From Bacillota bacterium (lineage in GTDB: Bacteria; Bacillota; Clostridia; Christensenellales; UBA1242), in NCBI GenBank assembly GCA_009784185.1, contig WRCD01000001.1, positions 129,698 through 193,697 on the forward strand: a stretch of DNA of 64,000 nt, written 5' to 3'. Position numbers and translations under genes: made by a program. Within the stretch, counting starts at the first letter, position 1. The number at the start of each line of letters is the position of its first letter. Shown one piece after another: positions 7,801 to 49,171 of this stretch. Under the pieces are notes generated by a model. The model saw nothing but the letters and a program-made list of their open reading frames with translations, was not told the origin of the DNA and ran no database searches.

Positions 7801-10800
7801 GCAGAAACGTAGGCGGCCAGATTAAGTTTGGCGAAGAGGGCAGAACCTTTACTCTTGGTGGACCGGGCGGGATTGCACTCAGCACATCCGGCGGCGCATT
7901 GACAGCAGACTTAACGGGGCACTTAATAGAACTGGAGGGCGATTATTTATATGCCCGCATACGTATGCTATCACGAGGCACATACTACAAAGATTCACTA
8001 TGGTCGGCGTATGCCGGATTCAGTCATCAGATTAAACTTGTTATATCCGGTCTTAAAGTAAGCATTACACCGGATTTGCCGGCAGATTTGACCAGTCAGG
8101 AGTTTAACGTAAAACGTTTGGAGTTAACCGGCTTTGTGCGCGGCGCTGATATGTTTACAATAGACATTAAACCATCTTCAGGCACAGAGTGGCAGTCCTT
8201 TACGTATTTCATGTATGCCGGGGCTATTGACGTTTCGGGTGTGATACTTCAGCCGGGCGAGTATGATGTGAGATTTACGGCGCTTAATAACGGCGAATAT
8301 TATTTGGGCGGCAATACTGAAACAGTAAAAATTGAGGTTTGGTTTATGCATGCAGAGCCGACCAATGTTACACACACGGTAAAATACGCAATGGGAGCAA
8401 CCCAAGCCGAAGACGAATATAACCCAACAAGCGTGATTGTTAATTTTGGCAATGCTATTATTAACAAGACGTATAACATAAGGCTGTTGGACCCTCTGAG
8501 CTTAACTGAGTTGCATATTTCCGGGATAATTTATGGGGTAGGCGGATTTGAAATTATAGATATATTAAATCAGTTGCCGCCAAGAAGTTATATTATAAGC
8601 GTAAGTGCTCCCGCCAGCGGATATTTCTTAGAATCGAAGCAAGTATTTTCTTCGAGCGGCAGCGGAGTTTATAAGCATCAGTATAGGATGCCGCAGGCGG
8701 AAGAAGCGGCGCTTACGCATATTATGGAGTACGATGCTCCCGAGCCTTACACCGGTTTTGTGCGGGCGCACGGATATATTTATTTTACACATTCCAGCCA
8801 GCTGCCCGGTCACGGGCTGCCGTTTGACGCGTTTAACGGTGAGAGTTATGTCCCGGTTTATGCAGGCTACAACGTATGGGTCAGGGACAATAAAGGAAAC
8901 AGCGCGAACTACAACTGCTTTGTCGGCAAAAATGAATCGGGCTTCTTTATAAAATCCGGTGCCGATGGGTTTACAATTAATCCGTTAACAGGCGAAATAA
9001 GGTTTGATATCTCCGTCTTTGCATATTCAACCGGACGGATTAATAATCCATATATTTCCGGATATTACTATTATACAATCACCACATTGGTGCCCGGCGA
9101 GTTTACGTCTAACATGGATGTGCGTGCAAGCCCTCCGCTGTATCAAGACTACAGTATGGGCGGCAGAATGTTCAACTTTTTAATAAAATACCCATACCGT
9201 CCGGAGGAGCTGACGCTTATGAACGGCGAAACAATCGGCAAAAACACCTGGCTGTATTGGACGCTGGCGGGGCCGGAGGCCGCAGCCGGCAACGTACGGT
9301 TTGTGGTATCTATTAACGGCAAAGAACATTTAATTAATTTAATAGGCGCGCCAACGTCTGCTCCCGGCATATACAGTTATAGCCTGTTTAGCATAGATGG
9401 CCTTATAATGGACTATCTGCGCGGCGGTGACAACCGGATAAGAGTGGCAGTTGAAGCAATGCCCGACAAGCATTTTTCGCGCGGTGACTGGAGTGATGAA
9501 ATACCGGTAAACGGCTACCAGGTAGTGCTTCCTGCGCCAAACGTAAACTGGGGCAGCAATAATGTTGTTTCATGGAACAACCAGCTTAACAGCAACTGGG
9601 ACAACATAGATACAGTATGGTATGAAGTTATAGTTGCATACGACACAGACTCGACTGCAGAGAAAAACGGCAGCGGGTATGAGGATATTCACACCTGGAC
9701 AATGCCCAGAAGTCCGAATCCGGAAATGAGCTTTAATTTGTATGATATGCTGTGGGGGACGGATTATTTAAATGGCCTATCACTGAAAAACGGAGCATAC
9801 CGGTTAACTATTAAAATTATAAGTTCAAACTCAGCCTATACTCCTTCGGAGGCTGCCGTTTGGCGGCAGTTTAAAGACCCGTTTGCCATGCCGGCGGATG
9901 TAGCTGTAGTGGTAACGGTTAACGGCAGCACTTTGCTGGCGGACGACAAAGAAGCTTATACTAGCAACGAAACCGAAACAAAAATTAATGTAAGCTGGCT
10001 TAGAGTTGAAATGGAAATGTCCGACAGCACTAAGGTATATCCAAAAAAATACATGATACAGGTATTTCTTTCTGTCGGCACCAACAGTGAAATAATAAAA
10101 GGTGAATATGAAATCTGCCTTGACACCAACGACGAGCGCCTGACATATGACTCGGTTACAAATAAGTATACATATGACATCTGGGCAGATTTCAAAAATC
10201 AGCGTGGAGGCGGAGACTATGTTGTATATGTAATAGCCATAGGCGAGTCCAGCGACCTCTTCAGTTCAAGCCCAAGGAGTAACAAAACCCCGGCCGCTCA
10301 GTTCAAGCATTATGTAAAGCTTCCTGTGCCGCAATTGCCTGCAACTTTAAGTTTAGACTTCACCGGCGAGGGCTGGTCAATATCGTGGAATGCTTATGAG
10401 GCTGATGGAGTATTGGGATACGAACTTAGCGTGGTTGAAATTAATGGTTTTGCACTAGAAGAGCATAAAATTAGAATAACTACAACATCAAACCGGCACT
10501 TTGCAAGCAGCAACAATACCTCAGGCGGCAATTTTTACTTAGACCAGGGCGCCTGGAACACGGTTAGGTTAAGGGCTATAGGAAATCCGGACTTTTATGT
10601 AAATTCCGACTACTCGCAAGTTGTGTATTATAATCTGCCCAAAGCTTTTCCACCGAGAGATTTTGCCGTGTTAACAAACCAGCCTGGCCGGGTTGAGGTA
10701 AACGAAACAACCGTCAGGGCCCAAACCGCCGAAGTGACCTTAACGTGGAGCTTTTTAAACCAGAACGATGCAGAACACTACATGTTGCTGGTTATGGACG

Positions 10801-13800
10801 AAAGCGGAATAAGCCATTGCAACACATTATACTTTTGTGTGGACAGGGAGAGTTTGCGCCGGAACATTTACTTGTGTAATTCAGAAGGCAAACGCATAGA
10901 TTTTGCCGGTACCCTCGGCGGCAATGCGCTGCTGGGCAGCCTGGATGGTGACCTTACCGGAAGCTTTGTAATTAATATTCCTGCGTGGGTGCTGTTTGGC
11001 GACTATGAACAAAGCACCGGCCCTGGCAGGTACAAGATTCTTCTTAGCGGCTATAATCCGAATCTGCAGGAATTAGGCGTCTATGGCCCGAGTCCGTTTC
11101 AGTTTATCTACAGAATCAGGCTGGATAGCCCGGTTGTGGAAATAGTTACAAATTTGGGGCCAGGATTGGATTATATTACAGCGCAGCAGGTACATGAGCG
11201 CAGTTTTGAGTTTACGGTTAATGTCAGCAATATGTCACACAATGCAAAAAGCTTTACATTAACGCTGGAGGTTTATAATAATAACAACGGATGGGTGCCT
11301 TTACCAAATGGTGCCACGACAATAGTTGAAATTAAGCGTGGTGAAGAAGACGGCAAGTGCAGTGTAGTGATAAGTAAAGAAAGTTACAGCGGTCTTTTTG
11401 ATCAGCTTATGTTGTACGCGCCCGCTACGTTCAGAGTGGTTGTTCAGGCAAAGGCTGAGGACACCTTGTATACAGACAGCTACCAAAGAACAGAAAGCCA
11501 ACAGATAAACCGCCAGATGGTTGCGCCCACATTTGAGCTGCTGATAGATGATATATTTGAAAGAAGCAACCTGAAATCAGGGGAAATAGATGACAAGAAT
11601 CGGCTTACAAACCTTAACACCAACGGTACTGCGTGCGACCTTTATGTGAAAGACGACAATGAAGGCCGTCAGGGCAGCGAATATGATGCTATAGGGCAAT
11701 ATCAGCTGGTTGGCAGGCTGAACGGAGTTGGAAGCTGGAGTGATATTGGCGACCCCATATTAGGCGGAAACTTTAAAAATCCTGCTGCTAATGAGGGCAC
11801 TTACACTATAGCAGGCCTCGGTTCCATATACCAAATGCTCCGTACCTGGCTGTGGGAGAAACATAGTCAAACAGGAGGAGGAATTGTTGAGCTTGCGCTT
11901 ATAGCTGTACCGGATGCATTATCAGGATGGAAAAACAGCCCTATGCCCGAAGGTGATTTGAATGCAAAAACACAGACAATTGCGTTTTATGTACGCTCTG
12001 GGGTTGTGGATACGGTATCGGTTGATGATTTACGGGCGGACATAGACTATTCCAACACCGGACCAAATATGAAACATACAACATACGACGCGTATATCCC
12101 AACTACTATAAGGCTTAATTGGAATGTCCATGAATCCAACAGTACAAACTACCGCGTTACGGTTGCGCCGTTTAACAGAAAGGACAAGACTCCAAATATG
12201 CCGTGGGGAGAATCCGGTTTTTCCATGCCGCAAGCCGGAGTAAAGACTATTGGCGGCCTTGGCGGTACGGGGCTTCAATCAAACCAAAACATTGCAAGCG
12301 GGTTTAACAATAATTTTAATTATAGCAATTTTGATGTTTATCACGGCGGAGTGGGCTATAATGCAAGCAAAGAGGCGGGCGGAGTTGGCTGGTGGGAGGT
12401 TTATGTTGAAGCAATAAAACCGAATGATGGCGGTGAGTTTATGGGCGCAGGATATCCGAGTGAGGCGTATCAGTTCAGGATTATGCTAAAGCTGCGGTCA
12501 ACCCAAATCGACGACCCAAACAAACAGGGTCTTTCAATCAGTGCCGGTGCAGTAAACGGAGTGGTGCCCGGGCAAAATTATATATTTGACGAAACTAAGA
12601 GAGTGAATATAAATAGTCTTACATCCCCTTCTGTATATTACCTGGTTAAGGCGCATGATCTTCAAACAATTAATCCAGACACAGCCAAAAGAATGGGACC
12701 GCTGTTAAAGGTTGACAGATTCAGAGTAGAAACAAATGTCGGCACAAACGGAAGCATAGGCGTATCTAGCTTGTTTGCCGATGATGTGGAGGGCGGAAGT
12801 TACGGGTATTCTGTAACCGCGCTTGACCCAAGCGGCGGGATAGTGTTTTTTGACTCAAATCCGGTGGCGGTTGCCGCCGGCCATGAATATGCGTACAACC
12901 ATGTTGCCAGAATAAACTATACCAACCGGACCACCGGCGGCGTAATTTATAATTACAACACCGGCGAACAAGCATATGGCAACAACAACGGCATATACAA
13001 CAGCGTTATTGCAGAAGTAAAAACGGTTCTTACAACAACCCCACCCAACAACAGGCTGGATATTACATACAATAATCATCCGTTTGCAACTCATTACGCC
13101 ACATATTATGTTCAGGCAATAGGGGAGACTTCTTCTGCGTGGGTGCGGGCAACACAACTAGAAGGCTCTTCTGCAGCACCTGGTCAATCAACCGCAATTC
13201 CTACGGACCGCCCGGCCAACTTTACGCGAAACTTTAACTTCGCTCCGGCATTTTTTGGAGTAAATGTTGATAAAAACATTAACGACACTAGCGCTAATAT
13301 AGCCAATTATCTGGCAGGTTGGGTGAGCAGCAATACATTTGGAGGGTACTTGCAGCCGGGCGAAGGAATGTTTGTGGTAGTGGCCTGGAACGCTCTAAAG
13401 TCAAACGAAGTTTTTATCGACAAGCGTCATGCAAACTTTATAACCTACAACTACAACTTTGAAGATAAGCAAAATACCAGTACAGGACAAAACACAAGCT
13501 TTACAGTTGGGCACAACGCGTACAGTTCAAGCTCCAGCCACTGTGAGTACATGAGTATGTCCCCCAAAAACTACTGGGTTACACCGGCTAATCTTAGTTT
13601 TGCGCCCTCCAACGCCCTTCCGCAGCTTGAGCCCAAGCTGTATATTGAGGCGGTAAAGTTTAATGTTAGAAACTTTACACAAGCCGACCTTAATGCTCCC
13701 AACCTGCAAACAAAAAGAGGCAACGGCCAGGCAGGCGGTAATGCCGGTAAAATTACGGAGTTTAGTTGGAGAAGTATTCCGGGCGCAATCGGGTACTCAA

Positions 13801-14486
13801 TAGAAATGACCGAGACATCGGGCCTTGGTTATGATATATTTAAGTACAGCACGCCGAACGGTGCCATAAGCAATGTTTTTAATGGTACTACCGGTGACAG
13901 ACTTGTATTGCAAGAAAGTATAAGGTGTATTTTAGGCTCTGAGGCATTAAGCAAACTGACCAGTTTGGCAAAATACCCCAGCAAAGATAAGGCCGACGGC
14001 AAAGACAGTGACACGGCAAGAGTCAGGATAGAATCGCATATCCGTGCCGGCACCGGCCAGTACTTTATAACCGCTGCGGTCGAAGACATTTGGCTTATCG
14101 GTTATCAGAGGCTGTATTTTACAAGGCTTGATTGGTTTAGCCAGAACGGTAACCTTGTTCCCTTTTTTGGATATGACCCGTTGTTTTGGTGCAACTTTTA
14201 TTGGGACCCTGTAATTGTGGGAAATCCTAACATGTCTGCTTGGGTTAGAATAGAGGCCAACATAACGACCGCTCAAAGTTCTGGAAAACTGTACTCAAGA
14301 GAATACAGAGAAACAAGTTCTTATACTTCTGTAAGCGGACTGAATCGTGGTGGTCTTCGCTTGCAGGAGTCTGCCTGGAGTGCGGGAGCTAACATGAGAA
14401 ACATGAAGCTGATATGGAGCCTTATTGACAACTCCGGCATTTACGGCAGTTATACAGGTGAAGAAAAGAAGACCACACACGGTTAA
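1878..14486 (+). CDS. Giant (4202 aa) N-terminally anchored surface protein built of FN3/Ig-like modules
   Basis: Single 12.6-kb ORF with a GAGGT SD about 6 nt upstream of the ATG. The N-terminus has a basic stretch plus a hydrophobic helix (WIYIVSAVAVVLAAAIVTLVITL). Dozens of ~90-110 aa modules follow, each with a W..V..A..Y.(V/L) signature (LIVSWSPVSGASCYELEL, LIITWDAVPGALSYNLVV, VLTWERVPGTRNGYYVML, EFSWRSIPGAIGYSIEM). No LPXTG-type C-terminal signal was seen. Confidence 0.85.
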   Translation: MSYSYGQKSGKKRTWIYIVSAVAVVLAAAIVTLVITLRPGNVPEPEYKLSAPSNLVVVVENGRHLVKFGAVTNAKSYDLLIDESRVTIYGSDLPLVEFDITNWMTDYKQYAISVKARAANSEFDSDYTTNIPHNNTTRLASPQLEVDLTGSVLMWNSVPRADMYKVTIDTVDFLTSRLVFDIAANLPAIAHLGIGSYDMKVAAHNSNSAFVLDSLPSNILKYVINTELSAPANLRIDDMGGSLIVSWSPVSGASCYELELLHGGTSTELGYTNDLAFDITSLVSNPLEYAVRVRAIGAPFVATSPFTEPVVYQKFVTHAAPAGLAAVKEGNQLIITWDAVPGALSYNLVVGTDLGFPFVSGDSISITATRAVVPLSSSDDGIYNIKVRVNAGPAFYNASEFCEPIRVDVNTQLDTPVGLAVGGAAGAEFLTWQHIPYATNGYLVRAYSGGSVVASATVKDNWAALGSLVSVSGEYRLTVQAIGYKFYAASAESASLLYVIKYVLPAPVLFKVEVKEVEAEEETDTSSEEEVINYREYLVWTKVGQPASQIYYSIWFSGLGVSGWVTDIDGKRVNIRQDSESFMRTDPVLGLVEVFIYDITDFLDAGNLPYVFRVKAFPEPGNNVELESVFSNEQAYGPITPFGTPDNVGVDSAFVLTWERVPGTRNGYYVMLNGKLINSDEGTTTHFVNSFNLINHLRPGENTVSVCAAGYGRFLQSPFSAPITVNYTVIKLAAVTDFNVSARIVGGTIRYQANFNSVRHATHYIIVVEDDEGNSIIVKRPVPLGLSLLISIEIPEDLIEKSGTTMFSIVAAYLHEHALPGSEDYTGWIINSNKFEYYYHDLAVLATPVPVISEDAFGRWWVSWGAIDRATGYAFSVSVQNAVSTPISLTLSGGTTAYELTDYFAANGGAKYQIVVRAIGNNLLIANSAAAMLIYDRKLQLATPDISVEVRNGRHEVVWEVVPYATVYNVRVYKDYAINGTSVTVVNQNTSFLGSPDNKVRLDIEPQLSAAFPGIYTVVVTAIGHKQIPDEAIGEYYYQASLEAELLYTYSPPLSSPNFRTVTSGETITVEIIAVQNAVSYEVYASRTGWNAGQLSLAELVESGTSLSYNISGWFYPSSTAFFGSPGEVYFGVRAIASPTIPSGSTVWYQDSLCPSSQIYVHYGKLDMVSNVEIIQLFNHPQSTDDYGIVFVSWQAPANSLDFEIKVTGSAAIDVPSNMITDLGGGRFGAYLNSGYFSKIPQQNSYTIEIRASDNLAAFYLASNWNRHDFTYCLQFETANVSFVGGSKVLEATQSLLEIVFERPNLAARSFAIHVTDRLNNIVLTPITFTPSAGLNPISYSLTNFSEITTKAGVYEVRVEVLGSGVWANSPLSTPVYCIRHEKLAATQDLFIVKVESAAELRFTPVANSETYTLEFFREDWPLETIVITRGECVPSGSRLVYSIPTNLVDVATSYKYTVKLYSNDVTASVTIPSEFTGILPNGYTYLAYLKSDAAETNYEADGALSPPAYLELVVIEGVRYLTWTQVWTQVTYPSSGLPVDSYRLAYVLRDANGIYFMPDGTVVPWEEDTYFDESVGDWVTRYYQRHNDYLLAELSAVLTSANVIVGQNGVYVDDGRVYYPLTDTLTTANLHLTYYYAIALLAEGNNEHGNSDVVLATLLPAPRDAPEIVLADPALSPDFYINKTGGTITLSFKNELSSQLGLYTEDGKPRWENIYSLSINGKEQWAINDDNASFNAVTSIITIDSVWLAEKLRGEYELVKDHHNFNRYFSIKLYAHAVNGVILTEVKEDPAPNYDIPNGSFEQIIYGNAVMYEERIIELNWLAPYLYDEPIIITSVEDDASNNYVINFSGDLRHATGFVIEVCDINGDPNSPATVLTIKIGTPGQSSYSLDFTSVLAGLSPMEYTVRLYVYSDTCKRVYGQRSSSDQPYYKSFRRYALENTVDVFSISGGLSNILSFDAPAGYTINNSFELEIGRNVGGQIKFGEEGRTFTLGGPGGIALSTSGGALTADLTGHLIELEGDYLYARIRMLSRGTYYKDSLWSAYAGFSHQIKLVISGLKVSITPDLPADLTSQEFNVKRLELTGFVRGADMFTIDIKPSSGTEWQSFTYFMYAGAIDVSGVILQPGEYDVRFTALNNGEYYLGGNTETVKIEVWFMHAEPTNVTHTVKYAMGATQAEDEYNPTSVIVNFGNAIINKTYNIRLLDPLSLTELHISGIIYGVGGFEIIDILNQLPPRSYIISVSAPASGYFLESKQVFSSSGSGVYKHQYRMPQAEEAALTHIMEYDAPEPYTGFVRAHGYIYFTHSSQLPGHGLPFDAFNGESYVPVYAGYNVWVRDNKGNSANYNCFVGKNESGFFIKSGADGFTINPLTGEIRFDISVFAYSTGRINNPYISGYYYYTITTLVPGEFTSNMDVRASPPLYQDYSMGGRMFNFLIKYPYRPEELTLMNGETIGKNTWLYWTLAGPEAAAGNVRFVVSINGKEHLINLIGAPTSAPGIYSYSLFSIDGLIMDYLRGGDNRIRVAVEAMPDKHFSRGDWSDEIPVNGYQVVLPAPNVNWGSNNVVSWNNQLNSNWDNIDTVWYEVIVAYDTDSTAEKNGSGYEDIHTWTMPRSPNPEMSFNLYDMLWGTDYLNGLSLKNGAYRLTIKIISSNSAYTPSEAAVWRQFKDPFAMPADVAVVVTVNGSTLLADDKEAYTSNETETKINVSWLRVEMEMSDSTKVYPKKYMIQVFLSVGTNSEIIKGEYEICLDTNDERLTYDSVTNKYTYDIWADFKNQRGGGDYVVYVIAIGESSDLFSSSPRSNKTPAAQFKHYVKLPVPQLPATLSLDFTGEGWSISWNAYEADGVLGYELSVVEINGFALEEHKIRITTTSNRHFASSNNTSGGNFYLDQGAWNTVRLRAIGNPDFYVNSDYSQVVYYNLPKAFPPRDFAVLTNQPGRVEVNETTVRAQTAEVTLTWSFLNQNDAEHYMLLVMDESGISHCNTLYFCVDRESLRRNIYLCNSEGKRIDFAGTLGGNALLGSLDGDLTGSFVINIPAWVLFGDYEQSTGPGRYKILLSGYNPNLQELGVYGPSPFQFIYRIRLDSPVVEIVTNLGPGLDYITAQQVHERSFEFTVNVSNMSHNAKSFTLTLEVYNNNNGWVPLPNGATTIVEIKRGEEDGKCSVVISKESYSGLFDQLMLYAPATFRVVVQAKAEDTLYTDSYQRTESQQINRQMVAPTFELLIDDIFERSNLKSGEIDDKNRLTNLNTNGTACDLYVKDDNEGRQGSEYDAIGQYQLVGRLNGVGSWSDIGDPILGGNFKNPAANEGTYTIAGLGSIYQMLRTWLWEKHSQTGGGIVELALIAVPDALSGWKNSPMPEGDLNAKTQTIAFYVRSGVVDTVSVDDLRADIDYSNTGPNMKHTTYDAYIPTTIRLNWNVHESNSTNYRVTVAPFNRKDKTPNMPWGESGFSMPQAGVKTIGGLGGTGLQSNQNIASGFNNNFNYSNFDVYHGGVGYNASKEAGGVGWWEVYVEAIKPNDGGEFMGAGYPSEAYQFRIMLKLRSTQIDDPNKQGLSISAGAVNGVVPGQNYIFDETKRVNINSLTSPSVYYLVKAHDLQTINPDTAKRMGPLLKVDRFRVETNVGTNGSIGVSSLFADDVEGGSYGYSVTALDPSGGIVFFDSNPVAVAAGHEYAYNHVARINYTNRTTGGVIYNYNTGEQAYGNNNGIYNSVIAEVKTVLTTTPPNNRLDITYNNHPFATHYATYYVQAIGETSSAWVRATQLEGSSAAPGQSTAIPTDRPANFTRNFNFAPAFFGVNVDKNINDTSANIANYLAGWVSSNTFGGYLQPGEGMFVVVAWNALKSNEVFIDKRHANFITYNYNFEDKQNTSTGQNTSFTVGHNAYSSSSSHCEYMSMSPKNYWVTPANLSFAPSNALPQLEPKLYIEAVKFNVRNFTQADLNAPNLQTKRGNGQAGGNAGKITEFSWRSIPGAIGYSIEMTETSGLGYDIFKYSTPNGAISNVFNGTTGDRLVLQESIRCILGSEALSKLTSLAKYPSKDKADGKDSDTARVRIESHIRAGTGQYFITAAVEDIWLIGYQRLYFTRLDWFSQNGNLVPFFGYDPLFWCNFYWDPVIVGNPNMSAWVRIEANITTAQSSGKLYSREYRETSSYTSVSGLNRGGLRLQESAWSAGANMRNMKLIWSLIDNSGIYGSYTGEEKKTTHG

Positions 14487-17503: not shown

Positions 17504-17510
17504 ACTAAAA

Positions 17511-17554
17511 CCACCCCGCCACTATGTGGCACCCCTCCAGGGAGGGGAATTTTT
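17511..17554. repeat. GGGGAATT-family nested-hairpin repeat, single unit
   Basis: CCACCCCGCC-[GCCAC-tat-GTGGC]-A-[CCCCTCC-ag-GGAGGGG]-AATTTTT. Confidence 0.85.
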
Positions 17555-17604
17555 ACCTTATTATTCTATTGTTATTTACTCTGCAAATATGCTATACTTA
17601 ACAT

Positions 17605-19327: not shown

Positions 19328-19481
19328 TAATTTGTGATGCTACGGCGCTGGCTTCGCTGCTCTGCAGCTGCAGAGGCGCTCTCCGCAATCACAAATTACT
19401 AAACTTGGCGGATTGTAAAGCTACGGCGCTGGCTTCGCCACTAAAGTGGCTGCAGAGGCGCTCTTAGCACTTACAATCCGC
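19326..19481. repeat. Two tandem ~75-nt long hairpins with conserved cores and covarying outer stems
   Basis: Unit 1 (19326-19400) has the stem AGTAATTTGTGAT/ATCACAAATTACT. Unit 2 (19408-19481) has the stem GGCGGATTGTAAA/CTTACAATCCGCC. Both enclose the identical core flanks GCTACGGCGCTGGCTTCGC and CTGCAGAGGCGCTCT. Confidence 0.8.
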
Positions 19482-19508
19482 CATAAATCAATCGTTAAGG
19501 AGGATGCA

Positions 19509-21083
19509 ATGTATTTAGCATTATACCGTAAATACCGGCCGGAGGTCTTTGAGGATTTAATCGGGCAGGAGCATATTACAAAAACGCTGGTTAATCAAAT
19601 AGCCATGGGTCAGGTCGGGCACGCCTATTTGTTTTGCGGAAGCCGCGGTACCGGCAAAACTACGGCAGCAAAGGTGTTTAGCAGGGCAATTAACTGCCAG
19701 AGCCCAAAATCGGGCAGCCCTTGCGGCAAATGTGCGGCGTGCAAAGCTTTAAGTGACCCGAGCAACATGGACATTATTGAGATTGACGCTGCCAGCAACA
19801 ACAGGGTAGACGAGGTGCGGGATATCCGCGAAAAGGCTAAATATCCTCCGGTGTCCGGAAAGTACAAGGTGTATATTATAGACGAAGTGCATATGCTTAC
19901 CGAAAGCGCTTTTAATGCTTTGCTTAAAACGCTGGAAGAGCCTCCAAAGCATGCTGTGTTTATTTTGGCAACAACCGAAGCACATAAGCTGCCGTCCACA
20001 ATTTTAAGCAGAGTGCTCAGGTTTGATTTTAAGCTGCTGGCGCGCACAGATATTGAAAAGCTGCTTAAAAAAGTGTTTAAGTCTGCGGGCATAACCTGTG
20101 ACGAGGCGGCGCTTAGTGCAATAGCTGTTGCTGGCGAAGGCTCGGTACGGGATGCGCTGTCTGTAGCCGATATGGTGGCCGCCTATAGCAACAACAACAT
20201 TACTTACAATGCCGTGCTGGAGGTGCTTGGCTCAGGCGACAAAAACACGATAATTGATATCAGCCGTGCAATTTTAGGCGGGAATGTAGCCGGCTTTGTA
20301 GACTTAGTTAATGTTTATAATTCCGCAGGCAGAAATCTGCAGGCACTGGTTAAGGACCTGACGGCACATTTTTATCAGCTGATTATGATAAAAACCTTGC
20401 CGGAAGCTAACAAAACATTGCTGCTGCCTAAAGAGGTTTTTGTGGAAATGCAGAAAGATTGTGCAGCGGATGCGGCATTGCTTAATGAGTGTATGCAGAC
20501 ATTTAATAAAGCCGGGCTGGAACTGAAGTTTGCGCCGGACCCGCTGCTTTGTTTAACTGCCGCAGGGCTGGGAATTATGCTTGGCGGCGATAAAAAAAAA
20601 CGGGTGATTGATAATTCCCCTCTTGAGAGGGGTGTCGGCAAAGCCGACGGGGTGTGTTTAAACAAAGTTTCTGCGCCGCCTTTGGCGGCGACTACCCCGT
20701 CTGCTTCGCTTTGCTCGCATCCACCCCTTCGCGAGCAAAGGGGAATTGGTTTGGCGGAGGCCAATGGTGACGCTCGCAAGATTTGGGGGCAGGTGTTGCA
20801 GGAGCTGGACAAAAAGCAATGTATGCTGCTTTACCCCATTTGCGGAAAGATTAGTAACGTGTATATAAACGGCAATAATTTTGTTGTTGCAGCAGGAAGC
20901 GCTGCCGAGCAGAAACTGCTAAAAAAAGAGCAAAACTACAACGATTTGGTAGCAGCTTTTGCCGGAATCGGATATAATTACAATATCGTGATTGAAGTTG
21001 GGCTAAATATAAAGACTCAAACCAAAAACACCGAAGACATATTAAAAGAAAAGTTAGGCGATATATTAAAAATAAAGGAGTAA
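19509..21083 (+). CDS. dnaX: DNA polymerase III subunit gamma/tau
   Basis: Start is MYLALYRKYRPEVFEDLIGQEH, with an AAGGAGGA SD. Walker A GSRGTGKTT, zinc module CGKCAAC, DEVHML and SRV motifs are present. The ORF-track start at 19446 is an unsupported extension. Confidence 0.92.
   Translation: MYLALYRKYRPEVFEDLIGQEHITKTLVNQIAMGQVGHAYLFCGSRGTGKTTAAKVFSRAINCQSPKSGSPCGKCAACKALSDPSNMDIIEIDAASNNRVDEVRDIREKAKYPPVSGKYKVYIIDEVHMLTESAFNALLKTLEEPPKHAVFILATTEAHKLPSTILSRVLRFDFKLLARTDIEKLLKKVFKSAGITCDEAALSAIAVAGEGSVRDALSVADMVAAYSNNNITYNAVLEVLGSGDKNTIIDISRAILGGNVAGFVDLVNVYNSAGRNLQALVKDLTAHFYQLIMIKTLPEANKTLLLPKEVFVEMQKDCAADAALLNECMQTFNKAGLELKFAPDPLLCLTAAGLGIMLGGDKKKRVIDNSPLERGVGKADGVCLNKVSAPPLAATTPSASLCSHPPLREQRGIGLAEANGDARKIWGQVLQELDKKQCMLLYPICGKISNVYINGNNFVVAAGSAAEQKLLKKEQNYNDLVAAFAGIGYNYNIVIEVGLNIKTQTKNTEDILKEKLGDILKIKE
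20613..20747. repeat. GGGGAATT-family repeat, inverted pair, embedded in-frame in dnaX
   Basis: AATTCCCCTCttgaGAGGGGT-GTCGGCaaaGCCGAC-GGGGTGTG ... CCCCGTC...CCACCCCTTcgcgagcaAAGGGGAATT. The architecture matches the intergenic copies. Confidence 0.8.
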
Positions 21084-21410: not shown

Positions 21411-22004
21411 ATGAAAAACTTTGTTGAGCCGATTGAGCGGCTGATAAATGAATTTAGCAAGCTTCCCGGTGTTGGAACCAAAACGGCGGGGCGGTTTGCG
21501 TATAGTATTATTAACCGCACGGATACGGAGGTGCGGGAGTTTGCTAAAGCGCTTACAGACGCCAAAACCAAGGTTAGGTATTGCAATATCTGCGGCAATT
21601 TTACAGATAAAGAAACCTGCAGCGTCTGTGTTGCCAGAGACCATAGTATTATATGTGTTGTGGCAGAACCCAAAGATGTGCTGGCACTTGAAAAGGTGCG
21701 CAGCTACAACGGCAGTTATCATGTGCTTCATGGCGTGCTTAGTCCGCTAGACGGCAAGGGCGCAGATGACATAAGGCTTAAAGAATTGCTGGCAAGGCTA
21801 AACGGCGGCAAAACGCAAGAGATTGTGCTGGCAACGCCTACTAATGTAGAAGGCGAAGCAACCGCAATGTATATAGCAAAGCTTATTAAGCCGCTGGGGA
21901 TAAAGGTAACCAGAATTGCCCAGGGTATATCCTTAGGCACCGAGCTGGAATACGCCGACGAGGTTACGCTGACCAGAGCGCTGAGCGATAGGAGAGAGAT
22001 TTAG
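21411..22004 (+). CDS. recR: Recombination protein RecR
   Basis: LPGVGTKTAGRFAY HhH motif, a C4 zinc finger (CNICGN...CSVC) and a Toprim region (VVAEPKDVLALE). Confidence 0.92.
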   Translation: MKNFVEPIERLINEFSKLPGVGTKTAGRFAYSIINRTDTEVREFAKALTDAKTKVRYCNICGNFTDKETCSVCVARDHSIICVVAEPKDVLALEKVRSYNGSYHVLHGVLSPLDGKGADDIRLKELLARLNGGKTQEIVLATPTNVEGEATAMYIAKLIKPLGIKVTRIAQGISLGTELEYADEVTLTRALSDRREI

Positions 22005-22060
22005 TAAGATTCCCCTTTTTTGTTGCCCAAAACTTTTTTGAAAAACTTTTGATTTTGGTA

Positions 22061-22091
22061 TTGACAAATGCGTAGGGGGGGGGGCTATAAT
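22061..22091 (+). promoter_or_regulatory. Sigma-70-type promoter with a G10 tract in a 19-bp spacer
   Basis: TTGACA (22061-22066), 19 bp containing G10 (22075-22084), then TATAAT (22086-22091). An AAAGGAGA SD and the ATG at 22122 follow. Confidence 0.7.
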
Positions 22092-22121
22092 AGACACATA
22101 GACCAAAAGGAGAAACAAAAT

Positions 22122-22745
22122 ATGATTAAAGAATTGATTTTTATAATTGACACTTCTAGTGATTCGGGGAGCAGGGCTAGAGAAGTAATGACGGCGGAAA
22201 CGGTTAATGTGGCTATGAGCATGGTCTGTAAAGACTTAGCTGATTTTTCAGGCTCAGTTCATCCGGAGGTGGAGCCGCGGCTTTCTATTTACCACAGTGT
22301 GTGGGATATGGAGCCACTGAGAAGCAAGGTCAACAATTGTCCATGGGCGGCGGCACCTGAGGCTGCCGAGAGAAATAAGTTTAACAAAGCGAAAATTAAT
22401 TTTGTAGGAAATCCAATGCTTGACGGTGCAATATTGGCGCTTGCAGAAAAACTTGAGGAAAAAGCAAACGCAGGCGGTTACGATTCAGGCATATGCGCGC
22501 CCGAAATTTTTGTGCTTGCCGGTGAGGCAGTAAACATGGATATGTTTTTTAGAACTGTTGAAAAGGCTGCGGAAAGAAGCCGCTTGATTAAACACTCAAG
22601 GGTTAGCGCAGTTTATATAGGCAACGATGCAGGTGCTCTGTATAAACAGATAGGCACAGGCACTAAGAAATGGAAAGACAAGTGGGCAGGAAAGGCAACA
22701 GCAATTGAGCCGCAAGGCGGCGCCGGAACCATGGACAAGAAATAA
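22122..22745 (+). CDS. Hypothetical protein, vWA/TerY-like fold with a degenerate MIDAS (tentative)
   Basis: The SD sits 8 nt upstream. LIFIIDTSSDSGS ... PRLSIYHSVWD ... GNPMLDGAILALAEKL ... PEIFVLAGEAVNMD ... VSAVYIGNDAG follows the vWA beta-alpha-beta order, but the metal-binding residues are replaced. Confidence 0.45.
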   Translation: MIKELIFIIDTSSDSGSRAREVMTAETVNVAMSMVCKDLADFSGSVHPEVEPRLSIYHSVWDMEPLRSKVNNCPWAAAPEAAERNKFNKAKINFVGNPMLDGAILALAEKLEEKANAGGYDSGICAPEIFVLAGEAVNMDMFFRTVEKAAERSRLIKHSRVSAVYIGNDAGALYKQIGTGTKKWKDKWAGKATAIEPQGGAGTMDKK

Positions 22746-22753
22746 TTTTTAAA

Positions 22754-22797
22754 CCGCCCCGGCGCTATGCGCCACCCCTCCAAGGAGGGGAATTTTT
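22754..22797. repeat. GGGGAATT-family repeat, single unit (terminator-like)
   Basis: CCGCCCC-[GGCGC-tat-GCGCC]-A-[CCCCTCC-aa-GGAGGGG]-AATTTTT, directly after the stop at 22745. Confidence 0.85.
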
Positions 22798-22858
22798 ATT
22801 TTACACATATTTTTTGCATAAAGCATATACATTGTTAAGTTTTGTTACAGGAGTGCAA

Positions 22859-23386
22859 GTGTTGGAGAGTTACAACGACTTTTTGCTGTTAGACAATAAT
22901 ACATATTCTCAAATGGAGCGGGCATATGCGCAGAGCATAGCTCCGCAAAGCGTAGTTCCGCCAATTGTTTCAAAAGTGGTCCCGGTTATTGCCTGGGAGG
23001 CGCTGCGCCTTATTTTTTATGGGCTGAAGCACACGCATTTTAATTTAAATCAGTTAACCAGGTTTGCGGGCCGCGGCACCACCAAAGAAAAGATTTTATT
23101 AAATGTGATTAAAATTGAACGGCAGCTTGCTATGCTCCATAGGTTGTATCACCAAAAAACCGGCACGGAATGCGTGTTTAATTTTATTGCTCCAAAGCAG
23201 GCACCAAATAATTGCACTGCATTACGGGCGGCAATAGATACTCAACTGGACGTGTTTAAAACCATGTTTGAGCTATACAAAAACGAAACAAACGCTGAAT
23301 CTAAAGCTATGCTGGAATCCGGCATAACCGAAGCGCATGAAGTGCTGAAAAATTTAACCAGTATGGTTTGTGCGGTAAGGTATTAA
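22859..23386 (+). CDS. Hypothetical protein (helical, no recognised domain)
   Basis: GTG start with a GGAG SD 6 nt upstream; the ORF-track TTG at 22814 has no SD. No motif was recognised. Confidence 0.5.
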   Translation: MLESYNDFLLLDNNTYSQMERAYAQSIAPQSVVPPIVSKVVPVIAWEALRLIFYGLKHTHFNLNQLTRFAGRGTTKEKILLNVIKIERQLAMLHRLYHQKTGTECVFNFIAPKQAPNNCTALRAAIDTQLDVFKTMFELYKNETNAESKAMLESGITEAHEVLKNLTSMVCAVRY

Positions 23387-23402
23387 GGTTGTTGTCGTCG
23401 CT

Positions 23403-23528
23403 AAAATTCCCCTCTATAAGAGGGGTGGCAATCACGAAGTGATTGACGGGGTGTGGATAACGAAAAGTCTGTATGACAACCACACCCCGCCTCGCAGGCT
23501 CGGCACCCCTCTTATAGAGGGGAATTTT
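23403..23528. repeat. GGGGAATT-family repeat, complete inverted pair
   Basis: AAAATTCCCCTCTataAGAGGGGT-GCAATCACgaaGTGATTGAC-GGGGTGTGG ... CCACACCCC-GCCTCGcagGCTCGGC-ACCCCTCTtatAGAGGGGAATTTT. Confidence 0.9.
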
Positions 23529-23580
23529 ATATGGCAAATCATTAGGAGCAAAACTTTTTTAAAAACTTTTGATTTTAGTA

Positions 23581-23611
23581 TTGACAAGTTCGGGGGGGGG
23601 GGCGCTATAAT
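23581..23611 (+). promoter_or_regulatory. Sigma-70-type promoter with a G11 tract in a 19-bp spacer (duplicate of the 22061 module)
   Basis: TTGACA (23581-23586), 19 bp containing G11 (23592-23602), then TATAAT (23606-23611). About 40 bp upstream and the 5'UTR are near-identical to the 22028-22124 module. Confidence 0.7.
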
Positions 23612-23641
23612 GGATGTATAAACCAAAAGGAGAAAAATAAA

Positions 23642-24214
23642 ATGAATATAGAACAAAGAGCGGACAGAATTATTGAAACCAGCAATAAGTATGTTGTAAG
23701 GCCTTCTGACCCGGATAGTTTTGGCAAGTTTAGTATCACAGATAAAAAAACCGGAGTTGATATGTCTGCAAAACTGGACAAGGACAGCAAGCGAGAGATA
23801 GTTTATAATGATATGATTAGAAACTTGTGCAGCGTAAAGAAATATTCTACAGATGGAACTCAAGATAGTTATGACAAAATTATGCTAGAAAATATGTTGC
23901 CTAATTTTGACGTATTGGCTGCAATGATTAACAAAGATTTAGGCAATGGCTCAATAGACACACAACCCATATTTAAGTATTTTGACGAGTGTAAATTTAA
24001 ATACACAGATGAATTAATACGAGGAATGTTCACTTCATCAATCTCGTATGGGCCGGAAAGGTTTTTGATTTTTGCAAATTACCATAACAATAATCCGGAC
24101 ATAAAACGAGTTTCAGATGCAAGTTGTAAAGGTCCGTCCGGCATTATACCCAACCCAACCAGAGTGAATTTTAAGGTGGAGAGAGCGCCTGCGGCCAAAG
24201 TTAAACTTCCTTAA
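23642..24214 (+). CDS. Hypothetical protein
   Basis: An AAAGGAGA SD precedes the ATG. 190 aa, no recognised motif. Confidence 0.55.
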   Translation: MNIEQRADRIIETSNKYVVRPSDPDSFGKFSITDKKTGVDMSAKLDKDSKREIVYNDMIRNLCSVKKYSTDGTQDSYDKIMLENMLPNFDVLAAMINKDLGNGSIDTQPIFKYFDECKFKYTDELIRGMFTSSISYGPERFLIFANYHNNNPDIKRVSDASCKGPSGIIPNPTRVNFKVERAPAAKVKLP

Positions 24215-24216
24215 AC

Positions 24217-24259
24217 CACCCCGCCCTTCGGGCACCCCTCCAAGGAGGGGAATTTTTTT
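24217..24259. repeat. GGGGAATT-family repeat, single unit (terminator-like)
   Basis: CCACCCC-[GCCC-ttc-GGGC]-A-[CCCCTCC-aa-GGAGGGG]-AATTTTTTT, immediately after the stop at 24214. Confidence 0.85.
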
Positions 24260-24296
24260 GAGTTCTATCCAGGGGGTTGCCAGCAATGATAACTGG

Positions 24297-25175
24297 CTAG
24301 CCCGGCAAAAATACTTTCAGTCCGCCTGCAACAACTTTTGCTTCAAACGGTGCGTTGTCGTATAGTTCGCCGTCGGTTTCAAGCAGCTCCGGGCTGCCAA
24401 GGGTTTTTATGCTTACAGTTTTGCACATAACTTCTTCTGCCCAATCTTCTCCAAGATGTTTGCCGCGCAAAAGCTTAAGCAATAAAAGCGGGATGCGTAT
24501 TTTCTTAATCTTTTTTATCATAACCAGATTAATTAAGCCATCGGTAATATCGGAGCGCGGGCTAACGGGGATTCCTCCTCCAAACCCGCTGCCGTTGCAG
24601 CACGCGGCCAAAACGTATTCGCCTTTATATTCTTTGTCGTCTGCTTTAATATGAAATTTGTAAAACTTAAAACACAGCAATGTAATTAGCAGTGCCAGCA
24701 TATAAGCAATCTTGCCGCGGAATACTTTAGCGTTGTTGTATTTAATTAACACCTCGGTATCCAAGCCGGTTGAAACTACATTAATGCTTTTCAGCTTGCC
24801 GCATTCAATGTAGTCTATGCTTCCGGTTTTGGCTTTTAATATGTCTTCAAAGGCTGCTACAGCCTCAAGCTTTAAACCCATCATTTTGGCAAAATCATTG
24901 CCGCTGCCGCTCGGCACAAACCCGACCGTAGTGTTTTTAAAGTCGGCAATACCTGCCAGCGCTTCGTTAAAGGTGCCGTCCCCGCCCATTACAACCAGGT
25001 TGCATGATTTGCCGCCGGAAGTGAGCTTAGCTGCAATATCGGTCATATGTTTGCTTTTTTCTGAAAAGTACATACGGTGTTCAATGCCGTTTTCTTTTAA
25101 ATAGTTATAAAGCAGAGCAATCTGCTTCCGGCTTTTTCTGCCGCCCGCTTTGGGGTTGATGACTATGTGGTACAT
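24297..25175 (-). CDS. Diacylglycerol/lipid kinase family protein (YegS/DagK-like)
   Basis: MYHIVINPKAGG N-terminus, the GGDGT motif (VVMGGDGTFNEA) and GSGNDFA. Confidence 0.85.
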   Translation of the reverse strand: MYHIVINPKAGGRKSRKQIALLYNYLKENGIEHRMYFSEKSKHMTDIAAKLTSGGKSCNLVVMGGDGTFNEALAGIADFKNTTVGFVPSGSGNDFAKMMGLKLEAVAAFEDILKAKTGSIDYIECGKLKSINVVSTGLDTEVLIKYNNAKVFRGKIAYMLALLITLLCFKFYKFHIKADDKEYKGEYVLAACCNGSGFGGGIPVSPRSDITDGLINLVMIKKIKKIRIPLLLLKLLRGKHLGEDWAEEVMCKTVSIKTLGSPELLETDGELYDNAPFEAKVVAGGLKVFLPG

Positions 25176-25195: not shown

Positions 25196-25242
25196 AATTC
25201 CCCTCTATAAGAGGGGTGCCGAGTTTACGAGGCGGGGTGTGG
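25196..25242. repeat. GGGGAATT-family repeat, single unit (opposite orientation)
   Basis: AATTCCCCTCTataAGAGGGGT-GCCGAGtttaCGAGGC-GGGGTGTGG, between divergent genes. Confidence 0.85.
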
Positions 25243-28058: not shown

Positions 28059-29405
28059 TTGTACTTTAAAGGTTACGCTTTTTTGTTTAGTTTAGTTGTG
28101 CTCGTATTGTTTACGGGTTTTTCAGGCTTTAGTTCGGTTGGGGCAAGCAACGAGCCGCATGAGGATTTTGTTTTAAGATACGACGGCAAAAAGCATATAT
28201 ACGATGTAGCTAAAAACGAGCCCAAGAGCAGCATCCATACCATTGAGCACCGGTATCAGAGGTTTGGCAAAAAAGGAACTCCTGCCGAGCGTGCGGAACT
28301 GCTGGGGAGGGTAATGGAACTGGGATTCGGCTATGAAGAGGCATTTAAATATGTATTTAAAAACTTTGATGTATTTGTTGCGGGGGTAATTAAAGGCGTT
28401 AGCCGCCCAAGCAAGGACTCTAAGATTTCTTTCTATCCCAACAGGAGCGATATGTTTGATATATCCCGGGAGCAGGTTGGTTTTGTGGTAAACAAGGAGC
28501 AGCTTTACAAAAAAATGTACATAGAATACTGTAAGACCGGCAAAATTGATATAGAAATTATTCCGCAAGTATTGGAGCCGCGGTACACATATGACGAGCT
28601 GAGTGCGGTAGACAACCTAAAGGCAAAGTTTGGCACATATTACGGAAGCAGCGGAGCGGACAGGCGGCACAACATTAACCTGGCTCTCAGGCAGCTTAAC
28701 GGTATGCGGATAGAGCCGAATGAAGAATACTCATTTAACAAAATCACCGGCAGACGGACAGAAGCCAACGGATACAGAAAAGCAAATATAATTATCAACG
28801 ACGAATATGTAGAAGGGTACGGCGGCGGGGTTTGCCAGGTGAGCACTACCCTATATAACGCATTGCTTCTTTCAGGCGCAGATATAACCGAGGTAAGGCG
28901 GCATTCGTTGCCCAGCAGTTATGTAGCGCTTGGGTTTGATGCAATGGTATCTCACGGCACAAGTGACCTTAAGTTTATAAACCGCAGCAGCCTGCCTATG
29001 TTTATAAAAGCATACAGCACTCAAAACAATATCTACATTGAAGTATACGGCGCTTCAAGCGAACCTGATTTTAAAATTAAACGCATTACCGAGATAATAA
29101 GAAAAATATCTCCTGCGCCGAGTAAAACCATTATTGATACAGCCGGAGAACATTCTGGCCTTGTAAACTATACAGACGAAACAGCAGTGCTGCATTACGC
29201 AAAGGACGGATATGAGGTAAACGCGTATCTGGAGTATTACATTGGCAGTACAATGGTAGGCAGAAAATTAATCCGGCATGAAACATACAAGCCGCAGCAA
29301 GGAGTGTACGTGCGCGGGGCTAAGAAGCGTCCTTTGCCACCACTGGAATCGGAGCCGCTAACTCAAATAATTCCCCTCTTAGAAAGAGGGGTGGCAGGCG
29401 TTTAG
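28059..29405 (+). CDS. VanW family protein
   Basis: N-terminal signal/TM and the VanW core (EPNEEYSFNKITGRRT...GYGGGVCQVSTTLYNA). The last ~12 codons (IIPLLERGVAGV) are encoded by a repeat element. Confidence 0.85.
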   Translation: MYFKGYAFLFSLVVLVLFTGFSGFSSVGASNEPHEDFVLRYDGKKHIYDVAKNEPKSSIHTIEHRYQRFGKKGTPAERAELLGRVMELGFGYEEAFKYVFKNFDVFVAGVIKGVSRPSKDSKISFYPNRSDMFDISREQVGFVVNKEQLYKKMYIEYCKTGKIDIEIIPQVLEPRYTYDELSAVDNLKAKFGTYYGSSGADRRHNINLALRQLNGMRIEPNEEYSFNKITGRRTEANGYRKANIIINDEYVEGYGGGVCQVSTTLYNALLLSGADITEVRRHSLPSSYVALGFDAMVSHGTSDLKFINRSSLPMFIKAYSTQNNIYIEVYGASSEPDFKIKRITEIIRKISPAPSKTIIDTAGEHSGLVNYTDETAVLHYAKDGYEVNAYLEYYIGSTMVGRKLIRHETYKPQQGVYVRGAKKRPLPPLESEPLTQIIPLLERGVAGV

Positions 29406-29512
29406 CCTCGCCGGGGTGTATGATTAATAACTATATACGCCTTCGGCGGCTACCCTGTCTGACTTCGCCACGAATGGCTCGTCATCCACCCCTTCGGAGA
29501 AGGGGAATTTTT
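29369..29512. repeat. GGGGAATT-family repeat, inverted pair overlapping the vanW 3' end
   Basis: AATTCCCCTCTtagaaAGAGGGGT-GGCAGGCgtttaGCCTCGCC-GGGGTGTA ... ACCCTGTC...CCACCCCTTCggaGAAGGGGAATTTTT. Confidence 0.8.
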
Positions 29513-29617
29513 ACTAAGGCGGTCTCTAAAGTTATTCACACGCGCTGCAAATACGACACACACTCTCCCAAAACCGGAATATTTACTCATGTAATTTGTG
29601 AATAAGTCTAACACGGT

Positions 29618-29746: not shown

Positions 29747-29839
29747 CCGCATTGCATTATACGAAATCCGGCATGAATAATATGCATGCATAAAATTACA
29801 TAGCGTGTATAATAAGTACGGAAAATGTTGTATATACGA

Positions 29840-29968
29840 AATTCCCCTCTATAAGAGGGGTGCCGAGCTTGCGAGGCGGGGTGTGGAAAACACTATAGCT
29901 AGTTTTATCTCCACACCCCGTCTGTCTGCGTTATCGCTTGACATCCACCCCTCTTGTAGAGGGGAATC
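29840..29968. repeat. GGGGAATT-family repeat, inverted pair
   Basis: AATTCCCCTCTataAGAGGGGT-GCCGAGcttgCGAGGC-GGGGTGTGG ... CCACACCCCGTC...CCACCCCTCTtgtAGAGGGGAATC. Confidence 0.85.
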
Positions 29969-29972
29969 TTTT

Positions 29973-30022
29973 GGAGCGAAAGCGACCCGTAGTTGTTACC
30001 TGTTACCTGTTCACTGTTCCCT
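29973..30022. repeat. Heptamer-arm repeat family, right half (core + 4 x 7 bp)
   Basis: GGAGCGAAAGCGACC-CGTAGTT-(GTTACCT)(GTTACCT)(GTTCACT)(GTTCCCT). Confidence 0.8.
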
Positions 30023-30293
30023 GAAACTTTGGGTGGCAGTTATATTCGTTTACCAGCACTTTAATTGTTTCGTCATTTGCGTCAGGCACCGTAATATAAT
30101 ACCAGCCTTTCTTTATTCCTTTAAATATTGCCTTGCCCTGGCGGTTGGATTTTAAAAAATAAACTTGTCCCGTCTGGTCGTCTTTCATATATACGGCCTT
30201 ACCGCAGGCGGGGCATCCGCTTTTATGTTTGAGGTTTATTCTAATGCAATACGGAATGTTGTTTTTATCCCGTCCTGGTTGGGGATAGCTCAT
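30003..30293 (-). CDS. Small hypothetical protein with a possible beta-sandwich (Cna-B/carboxypeptidase-regulatory-like) segment
   Basis: 96 aa. QGKAIFKGIKKGWYYITVPDAN resembles the G.Y.V motif of such domains. There is no strong SD, and the C-terminal codons are supplied by the heptamer repeat. Confidence 0.45.
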   Translation of the reverse strand: MSYPQPGRDKNNIPYCIRINLKHKSGCPACGKAVYMKDDQTGQVYFLKSNRQGKAIFKGIKKGWYYITVPDANDETIKVLVNEYNCHPKFQGTVNR

Positions 30294-31653: not shown

Positions 31654-31684
31654 GGGAACAGGGAGCAGGGAACAGGTAACAACG
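31654..31684. repeat. Heptamer-arm repeat family, left arm only (4 x 7 bp)
   Basis: (GGGAACA)(GGGAGCA)(GGGAACA)(GGTAACA)ACG. This is the reverse complement of the arm at 29995-30022. Confidence 0.75.
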
Positions 31685-40714: not shown

Positions 40715-40745
40715 TTGACTTTTTGGCAGGGGGGGGGGGTATACT
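40715..40745 (+). promoter_or_regulatory. Sigma-70-type promoter with a G11 tract in a 19-bp spacer
   Basis: TTGACT (40715-40720), 19 bp containing G11 (40729-40739), then TATACT (40740-40745). The methyltransferase start lies 18-24 nt downstream. Confidence 0.65.
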
Positions 40746-40762
40746 GGTTAGAAGATTGGAGA

Positions 40763-48791: not shown

Positions 48792-48887
48792 TTCCCCCTT
48801 TAGCAAAGGGGTGCCGGCTGAGCGAACGGGGTTCCACCATAATTCCCCTCTAGAGAGGGGTGTCGGGCGAAGCCTGACGGGGTGTGT
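48790..48887. repeat. GGGGAATT-family repeat, two tandem same-orientation units
   Basis: AATTCCCCCTTTagcAAAGGGGT-GCCGGCtgagcgaAC-GGGGTTCC, then AATTCCCCTCTagAGAGGGGT-GTCGGGCgaaGCCTGAC-GGGGTGTG. The first unit starts in the stop codon at 48789-48791. Confidence 0.85.
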
Positions 48888-49109: not shown

Positions 49110-49159
49110 GGAGCGAAAGCGACCTATAATTATTAAGTATTCAATATTCATTATTCATT
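49110..49159. repeat. Heptamer-arm repeat family, right half
   Basis: GGAGCGAAAGCGACC-TATAATT-(ATTAAGT)(ATTCAAT)(ATTCATT)(ATTCATT). The core is identical to the copy at 29973. Confidence 0.8.
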
Positions 49160-49171
49160 AAAAAGAGCCGT

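Follow-up and report, generated by a model that had tools for sequence, protein, structure and literature searches.

Three open reading frames (ORFs), designated orfA, orfB, and orfC, form a small block between recR and a lipid kinase gene in DNA from a Bacillota bacterium of the Clostridia (Christensenellales; contig WRCD01000001.1, positions 129,698 to 193,697), and this whole stretch of 64,000 nucleotides (nt) is referred to here as the window. The window sequence is part of metagenome contig k141_1238365 (207 kb; ENA assembly ERZ27257304), and the sole indexed public run that contains it (X1) was from a termite gut, at a depth of ~10 to 14×. The three ORFs lie on the plus strand between recR and the lipid kinase gene as originally predicted: orfA at 22122-22745 (207 amino acids [aa], isoelectric point [pI] 6.8, host-typical codon usage), orfB at 22859-23386 (175 aa from a GTG start, predicted all-alpha), and orfC at 23642-24214 (190 aa, pI 8.6), each encoding a predicted soluble protein of orphan status. 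The left border of the block is recR (21411-22004, plus strand), which carries the RecR Pfam domains and is the last gene of a dnaX-ybaB-recR unit, while the right border is a convergent gene for a lipid kinase of the DAGK_cat/YegS_C type (24297-25175, minus strand; Pfam E = 1e-25 and 2e-24).

The first and third genes each have their own poly-G promoter, and this part of the original prediction was confirmed by sequence inspection and by a pattern search of the window, which returned 2 matches versus 0.11 expected. The promoter/5′ untranslated region module upstream of orfA (copy 1, 22030-22121, plus strand) comprises an A/T-rich upstream part, a TTGACA hexamer (22061-22066), a 19-nt spacer with a G10 tract (22075-22084), a TATAAT hexamer (22086-22091), and the Shine-Dalgarno site AAGGAG (22107-22112). 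The module upstream of orfC (copy 2, 23550-23641, plus strand) has the same arrangement, with TTGACA at 23581-23586, a 19-nt spacer with a G11 tract (23592-23602), TATAAT at 23606-23611, and AAGGAG at 23627-23632. The two copies belong to a 104-nt direct repeat (22030-22133 and 23550-23653, 82% identical) that runs from the A/T-rich part through the Shine-Dalgarno site to the first four codons of each gene. Both promoters therefore contain a simple sequence repeat in the spacer, taken as a homopolymer of at least 8 to 9 nt between recognizable −35 and −10 elements. The description of the block as standing under twin poly-G promoters holds for orfA and orfC and fails for orfB, upstream of which only a weak candidate promoter could be read by eye (TTGCAT, 16 nt, TGTTAAGTT). 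Only three G runs of 7 or more occur in the 64 kb, each of them in a 19-nt spacer between near-consensus hexamers, and C runs of 6 or more are absent from the window; no further poly-G promoter was found within 10 kb beyond either window end. Moreover, the module recurs elsewhere in run X1, whose Logan contigs contain, away from the block and at a similar depth, a minimum of four additional copies or relatives of it, near-identical to copy 1 and diverged relative to copy 2. Breaks of Logan contigs at the G tracts were considered as possible length variants and discarded, as they are branches into other module copies.

Terminator-like hairpins follow all three genes. A double hairpin of the repetitive extragenic palindrome (REP) type with a T run at 22751-22803 (plus strand; stem 22775-22790, then AATTTTTATT) is the likely intrinsic terminator of orfA, and a second one at 24211-24263 (plus strand; stem 24235-24250, then AATTTTTTTG), which faces the 3′ end of the lipid kinase gene, is the likely terminator of orfC, both belonging to repeat family D4. 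Between orfB and orfC lies an inverted-repeat element of ~130 nt resembling a miniature inverted-repeat transposable element (MITE) (23398-23532, no strand assigned), whose hairpin ends at 23405-23425 (minus strand) and 23506-23526 (plus strand) may act as a two-way terminator. The claim that each gene ends in a hairpin of one family thus stands as far as the hairpins are concerned, but the GGGGAATT hairpins belong to a REP/MITE family that is spread over the genome, recurs throughout the window, and is not a feature of the block. With respect to its layout, the block is a set of separate monocistronic promoter-ORF-terminator units.

We consider orfA to orfC, with about even confidence, to be phase-variable, lineage-specific contingency genes for small soluble cytoplasmic proteins. 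Slipped-strand mispairing at a G tract would alter the length of the spacer between the −35 and −10 elements, and the changed spacer would in turn alter the strength of a sigma-A promoter. Both 19-nt spacers in the assembly are predicted to represent a weak or off state, from which the loss of one or two G residues would lead to the optimal 17 to 18 nt. In such a scheme, orfA and orfC would each be switched stochastically and independently within the population and so behave as contingency loci, and orfB would be left unswitched and be expressed from its own weak promoter or by read-through. It is long established that homopolymer length in the promoter spacer sets the expression of porA and opc in Neisseria meningitidis (van der Ende 1995; Sarkari 1994; both cited in PMC5084427). 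The tracts of 10 to 11 G in the block resemble those of porA (poly-G) and opc (poly-C), where ~9 to 14 G or C stand between near-consensus hexamers. In contrast to that system, the host here is a Gram-positive-type member of the termite-gut Clostridia rather than a proteobacterial pathogen, the promoter and 5′ untranslated region form a duplicated, portable module of ~100 nt, the cargo consists of cytoplasmic orphan proteins rather than outer membrane proteins, and tract-length variation at the orfA and orfC loci is a prediction. The regulatory principle is already known, while the clade and the cargo are unusual.

The third poly-G promoter (40715-40745, plus strand) is located ~17 kb away, outside the block, and consists of TTGACT (40715-40720), a spacer of the same 19 nt with a G11 tract (40729-40739), and TATACT (40740-40745), with flanks unrelated to those of the orfA and orfC modules. 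It drives a gene for an EcoRI-like adenine methyltransferase (40763-41851, plus strand; PF13651, E = 1e-19) and, overlapping it, a gene for an HNH/GmrSD_N nuclease (41848-42963, plus strand; PF01844, E = 3e-10), so that 40715-42963 is a candidate phase-variable operon of a restriction-modification-like or defense type. The organism therefore puts intracellular defense-type genes under the same promoter design, as in phasevarions. In classical phasevarions, the repeat usually lies within the mod or hsdS coding sequence and not in a promoter spacer. A further difference is that orfA to orfC have no similarity to methyltransferases or nucleases. The methyltransferase promoter itself has a counterpart on an unrelated metagenome contig (L093, 1086-1119, Ga0209278_1000045), where a 34-nt core with 97% identity (CTATTGACTTTTTGGC, A or T, G11, TATACT) stands above a gene for a secreted protein, with flanks and cargo dissimilar to those of the methyltransferase locus.

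Poly-G-spacer promoters are not confined to this genome. Metagenome contigs were scanned for the exact pattern TATTGAC, 7 to 11 nt, at least 9 G, 0 to 5 nt, and TATAMT, and at least 117 loci (L082 to L198), mostly from the human gut, carry it with tracts of G9 to G21. Among the matches listed, one family of orthologous promoters with identical flanks (family 0, n = 29) included tracts of G9 (3 promoters), G10 (9), G11 (14), G12 (1), and G14 (2), and a second (family 1, n = 14, likewise among the matches listed) ranged from G10 to G14 between samples. These G-length differences among orthologous promoters, together with the presence of the third promoter above a restriction-modification-like pair, lend support to the switchable reading. 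The original prediction of independently switchable cassettes is consequently retained in part, in that orfA and orfC each form a promoter-ORF-terminator unit of their own with its own G tract, in an architecture that is length-polymorphic in gut metagenomes, while orfB has no switch. No account of such promoters in gut Clostridia or Firmicutes turned up in a literature search. At two of the metagenome loci (L106 and L111), similar promoter flanks stand above genes for cytoplasmic proteins of no Pfam family, without significant similarity to orfC. The poly-G-driven gene at L111 (649-1330, minus strand; Ga0123352_10000152) has an in-frame TAG after codon 27 followed by ~197 codons in frame, which could reflect a pseudogene, a sequencing error, or read-through.

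Several observations weigh against phase variation of the block or against its link to conflict. The pattern required at least 9 G, by which the length distributions lose their lower end, so that short "on" alleles escape detection and the 19-nt mode of the spacers is biased; in addition, assemblers miscount homopolymers. No G-tract insertion or deletion was seen among the contigs of run X1, which drop rare variants, so this absence says little, and the window stretch was not found in any indexed RNA run. Most poly-G cargo elsewhere is exported, while the products of orfA to orfC are not. The surroundings of the block are housekeeping genes without any sign of the defense island that had been raised as a possible setting, and no model of PADLOC-DB v2 for a defense protein matched any of the three proteins at an E value of ≤1. 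Finally, every one of the three window tracts sits in a spacer of precisely 19 nt, and a fixed geometry might explain this.

According to this explanation, the G-filled 19-nt spacer would be a fixed design, serving for example as a binding site or structural element for a regulatory protein or alternative sigma factor, and the genes would be ordinary lineage-specific ones under conditional regulation. We regard it as unlikely. It would account for the constancy of 19 nt in the three promoters despite their differing G and flank lengths, for the fact that 19 nt is also the commonest spacer in the metagenomes (47 of the 117, among the matches listed), and for the lack of length variants in the contigs of run X1. 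The loss of rare variants from contigs makes the last point weak, however, and tracts of at least 9 G are intrinsically unstable. Moreover, the orthologous gut promoters range from G9 to G14 with spacers of 15 to 22 nt, a variation that would be incompatible with a functional geometry of fixed length.

A second alternative is that one or more of the ORFs, perhaps all three, lack a functional protein product and are young proto-genes or decaying remnants that happen to be situated below duplicated promoter modules. The ORFs have no homologues anywhere, and their conservation is unproven; the structure models of orfA and orfB are of low confidence; and the promoters as assembled are predicted to be weak. 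In a scoring of all frames by the window's own codon usage (training mean 0.337, standard deviation 0.058), orfB (0.23) and orfC (0.19) were also below typical codon adaptation. On the other side, the annotated frame had the highest score of the six for each ORF, and orfA (0.33) was fully host-typical. The clearly functional methyltransferase scored still lower (0.135), and low scores therefore fit a foreign origin rather than noncoding sequence. The three ORFs together occupy 75% of a 2,292-nt region on one strand, and none of 2,000 composition-preserving (Markov-1) resamplings gave three ORFs of at least 175 aa in that length, the longest ORF reaching 175 aa in just 0.9% of them. Furthermore, Shine-Dalgarno sites and terminators precisely frame each ORF, with AAGGAG or AGGAG 5 to 9 nt before each start. 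For orfB, an AGGAG lies 5 nt ahead of the GTG start, although the start is ambiguous between this codon at 22859 and a TTG at 22814, which would give 190 aa. Thus, orfA, orfB, and orfC are probably real genes, and we find it quite unlikely that they are without a functional product. The GC content of orfC (36.6% versus 45% for the window) is the lowest within an 11-kb span and, together with its atypical codon usage, suggests a foreign or recent origin; in both respects it resembles the methyltransferase and HNH genes (the latter with a score of 0.26), which have GC contents of 38 to 39%.

The orphan status of the three proteins, as originally predicted, was borne out by family libraries and protein databases alike. 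Searches of Pfam, NCBIfam, and PHROGs as well as PADLOC at E ≤ 1 gave nothing credible for any of them apart from noise such as GPAT_N (E = 0.045), so no housekeeping family emerged from profile searches. In a word-indexed search of 5.8 billion proteins, each of the three matched itself alone, and the same held for orfA when 1.84 billion cluster representatives were scanned by HMMER without filters. With tblastn, neither the 72,556 plasmids searched with orfA alone nor the 50,697 phages searched with all three gave anything below E = 2, scans of IMG/VR viral contigs gave no match to the three proteins beyond noise, and no paralogues were found among the three or elsewhere in the window. In these searches, no other genome proved to contain any of the three genes. 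Structural comparison of orfA and orfB, which had been proposed as a way to place them, returned low-confidence models and no significant match. The single-sequence AlphaFold model of orfB is all-alpha with a pLDDT of 47, and although Dps, bacterioferritin, and YciF head its Foldseek list, none is significant; a four-helix bundle of the ferritin/Dps/YciF type was accordingly rejected (no Pfam match; Foldseek E ≥ 0.5, TM 0.2 to 0.35). Likewise, a PQQ-like beta-propeller was rejected for the C terminus of orfA, where a single blade-like stretch (aa 147 to 199) is present without a Pfam PQQ match. In a PDB sequence search, this stretch matched designed "Cake" propellers at E values of 2 to 8 as a single stretch and the two-blade Cake2 at E = 0.046, the low whole-protein E values against such propellers being due to the repeats in the target; the PDB search gave nothing else for the three proteins.

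The original prediction also tentatively saw in orfA the topology of a von Willebrand factor A (vWA) domain resembling TerY, with an ablated metal ion-dependent adhesion site (MIDAS). In this alternative, orfA would be a degenerate vWA/TerY-like protein that mediates interactions without a metal, and orfB and orfC may be its partners. Certain features are compatible with it. The size of orfA (207 aa) is close to that of Escherichia coli YegL (219 aa), a stand-alone vWA protein of the TerY-like kind and a member of the YegI-PphC-YegL triad, and its N terminus (ELIFIIDTSSDS), a hydrophobic strand followed by D-x-S-x-(S/D), is in register with the β1-DxSxS of the vWA profile and, in the best local alignment, with YegL. 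The low-confidence model has a beta-alpha-beta layout (E5-10, H25-46, H99-117, E128-134, H139-152, E160-167) compatible with an alpha/beta Rossmann-like fold, and in a reading of this model GNPM and AGE are located where GGT and TDG would be. The quoted strings are indeed present (DTSSDS at aa 10 to 15, GNPM at 95 to 98, and AGE at 133 to 135), while their correspondence to MIDAS motifs beyond the first depends on that low-confidence model, and a complete MIDAS (DxSxS...T...D) was not found in orfA, the candidate positions holding D10-T-S12-S-D14, GNPM, and AGE. The profile and pairwise comparisons were negative or at chance level. No vWA-clan Pfam family matched orfA at E ≤ 1, nor did a PADLOC TerY model, and hhalign against a YegL/ViaA/YfbK profile covered 12 N-terminal columns only with a probability of 1.1% (0.1% for orfC as a control), so that the similarity is not significant beyond 12 residues. 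Smith-Waterman z scores against the vWA domains of E. coli YegL, ViaA, and YfbK were −0.66, −0.83, and 0.77, no better than those of the orfB and orfC controls. In the single-sequence AlphaFold model of orfA (pLDDT 39, pTM 0.39), residues 47 to 98 are unmodeled, and a Foldseek search with this model against the PDB gave nothing with an E value below 0.6 and no vWA match. Moreover, the TerY-P triad of vWA protein, PP2C phosphatase, and Ser/Thr kinase is absent from the locus, where recR, two orphans, and a lipid kinase are found instead, with no kinase or phosphatase partner nearby. Thus, the vWA identity of orfA is not supported and is a lead rather than a finding, and we consider this alternative distinctly improbable.

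Surface-type proteins, such as those with signal peptides, lipoproteins, and pilins, are the classic cargo of phase variation. Poly-G-spacer promoters are frequent upstream of genes for lipoproteins, prepilins, and large surface proteins among the matches listed. That orfA to orfC encode surface or host-interaction factors exported nonclassically, like most poly-G cargo in gut Firmicutes, is nevertheless very improbable, since against the 32 of 46 families whose first downstream gene has a signal-like N terminus (14 lipoboxes and 2 prepilins, among the matches listed) stand the absence of any signal peptide, lipobox, transmembrane or other hydrophobic segment from the three proteins (maximum KD19, 0.72 to 1.46), in agreement with the original prediction as regards signal peptides, and the lack of adjacent secretion genes. 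For the phase-variable genes that we favor, our best guess is instead that the products act intracellularly in conflict with phages or mobile elements, because the sole recognizable cargo of the same promoter type in the window is the methyltransferase/HNH pair and because the proteins are not exported.

With regard to the host, a comparison of the window RecR with 185,579 species representatives gave no more than 66% identity to its best relatives, which are without exception uncultured metagenome-assembled genomes (MAGs) of Christensenellaceae, Clostridia, "Scatosoma", or "Borkfalkia", and the window is therefore from a poorly sampled Christensenellales-like lineage. The RecR identity to 80 Christensenellales-like MAGs was 57 to 66%, and the order dnaX-ybaB-recR is kept in 76 to 80 of these 80 relatives, with synteny ending at the recR stop codon. 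The genes that follow recR differ among the 80 (gpsA-like, spoVA, and others), and neither orfA to orfC nor the dagK, pcnB, and rmuC neighbors were found within 8 kb in any of them. The conserved upstream unit and the variable downstream genes thus place the block at a synteny breakpoint. Elsewhere in the window, a 4,202-aa ORF (1878-14486) has no Pfam match; just outside the window, in up to 10 kb of upstream sequence (L204, 955-9984), it is preceded by a gene for a 2,171-aa Big_2/Peptidase_M26_N protein, several genes without a Pfam assignment, and one for a ParM/ALP-like actin.

The repeats that surround the three genes extend far beyond them. With up to one mismatch, GAGGGGAATT has 23 matches in the window versus 3.2 expected, and the REP-like family (CCCCTC..GAGGGGAATT) occurs, for example, at 17508-17560, 25196-25242, 29840-29886, 48841-48887, and 53417-53441 in addition to the orfA and orfC terminators at 22751-22803 and 24211-24263. 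Each of three termite-gut runs, two of them without this organism, has the element on more than 1,000 different contigs, and the recR loci of the 80 relative MAGs lack it; it appears to be confined to a termite-gut lineage. Similar to known REP/MITE intergenic terminators, these are G+C-rich hairpins with a T run that occur in many copies, singly or as inverted repeats of ~130 to 150 nt. They differ from known repeats in having no Rfam family (best E = 0.3 across the block) and in that one copy lies in frame inside a gene. The MITE-like element of ~130 to 150 nt (ends AATTCCCCTC..GAGGGGTG and CACCCCT..AGGGGAATT) occurs at 23398-23532 and in aligning copies at 20606-20754, 29362-29516, and 29833-29975, and it is the copy at 20606-20754 that is in frame within the variable linker of the essential dnaX (19446-21083). 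The public annotation lists a 60-aa gene at 23439-23621 that spans the inverted-repeat element, ends in the poly-G promoter module, and is probably a false call. In addition, several intergenic sites (29981-30026, 31654-31683, 49118-49163, 49823-49852, 49894-49939, 60782-60811, and 60850-60895) contain short arrays resembling GTTACCT/GGTAACA (e.g., GTTACCTGTTACCTGTTCACTG and the complementary sequence).

As single-genome orphans without a fold, partners, or a phenotype, the three proteins themselves add little at present. If the G tracts switch, phase variation by simple repeats would operate outside the classical pathogens, both in this organism and in a wide set of gut Firmicutes, and one type of switch would govern intracellular genes in this block as well as the surface lipoproteins of other bacteria of the gut. 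In that case, orfA to orfC would be candidate genes for novel functions that carry a conditional cost, phage defense being one example. A more far-reaching reading, which we find doubtful, is that the ~100-nt module is a portable "plug-in switch" placed by this termite-gut lineage before newly acquired or newly born genes and that orfA to orfC are so far unseen, stochastically expressed intracellular effectors in conflict with phages or mobile elements; if so, homopolymer phase variation would extend to the Clostridia and to cytoplasmic orphan cargo. The length-polymorphic poly-G-spacer promoters above lipoprotein genes of gut Firmicutes may, however, merit more attention than the three orphans.

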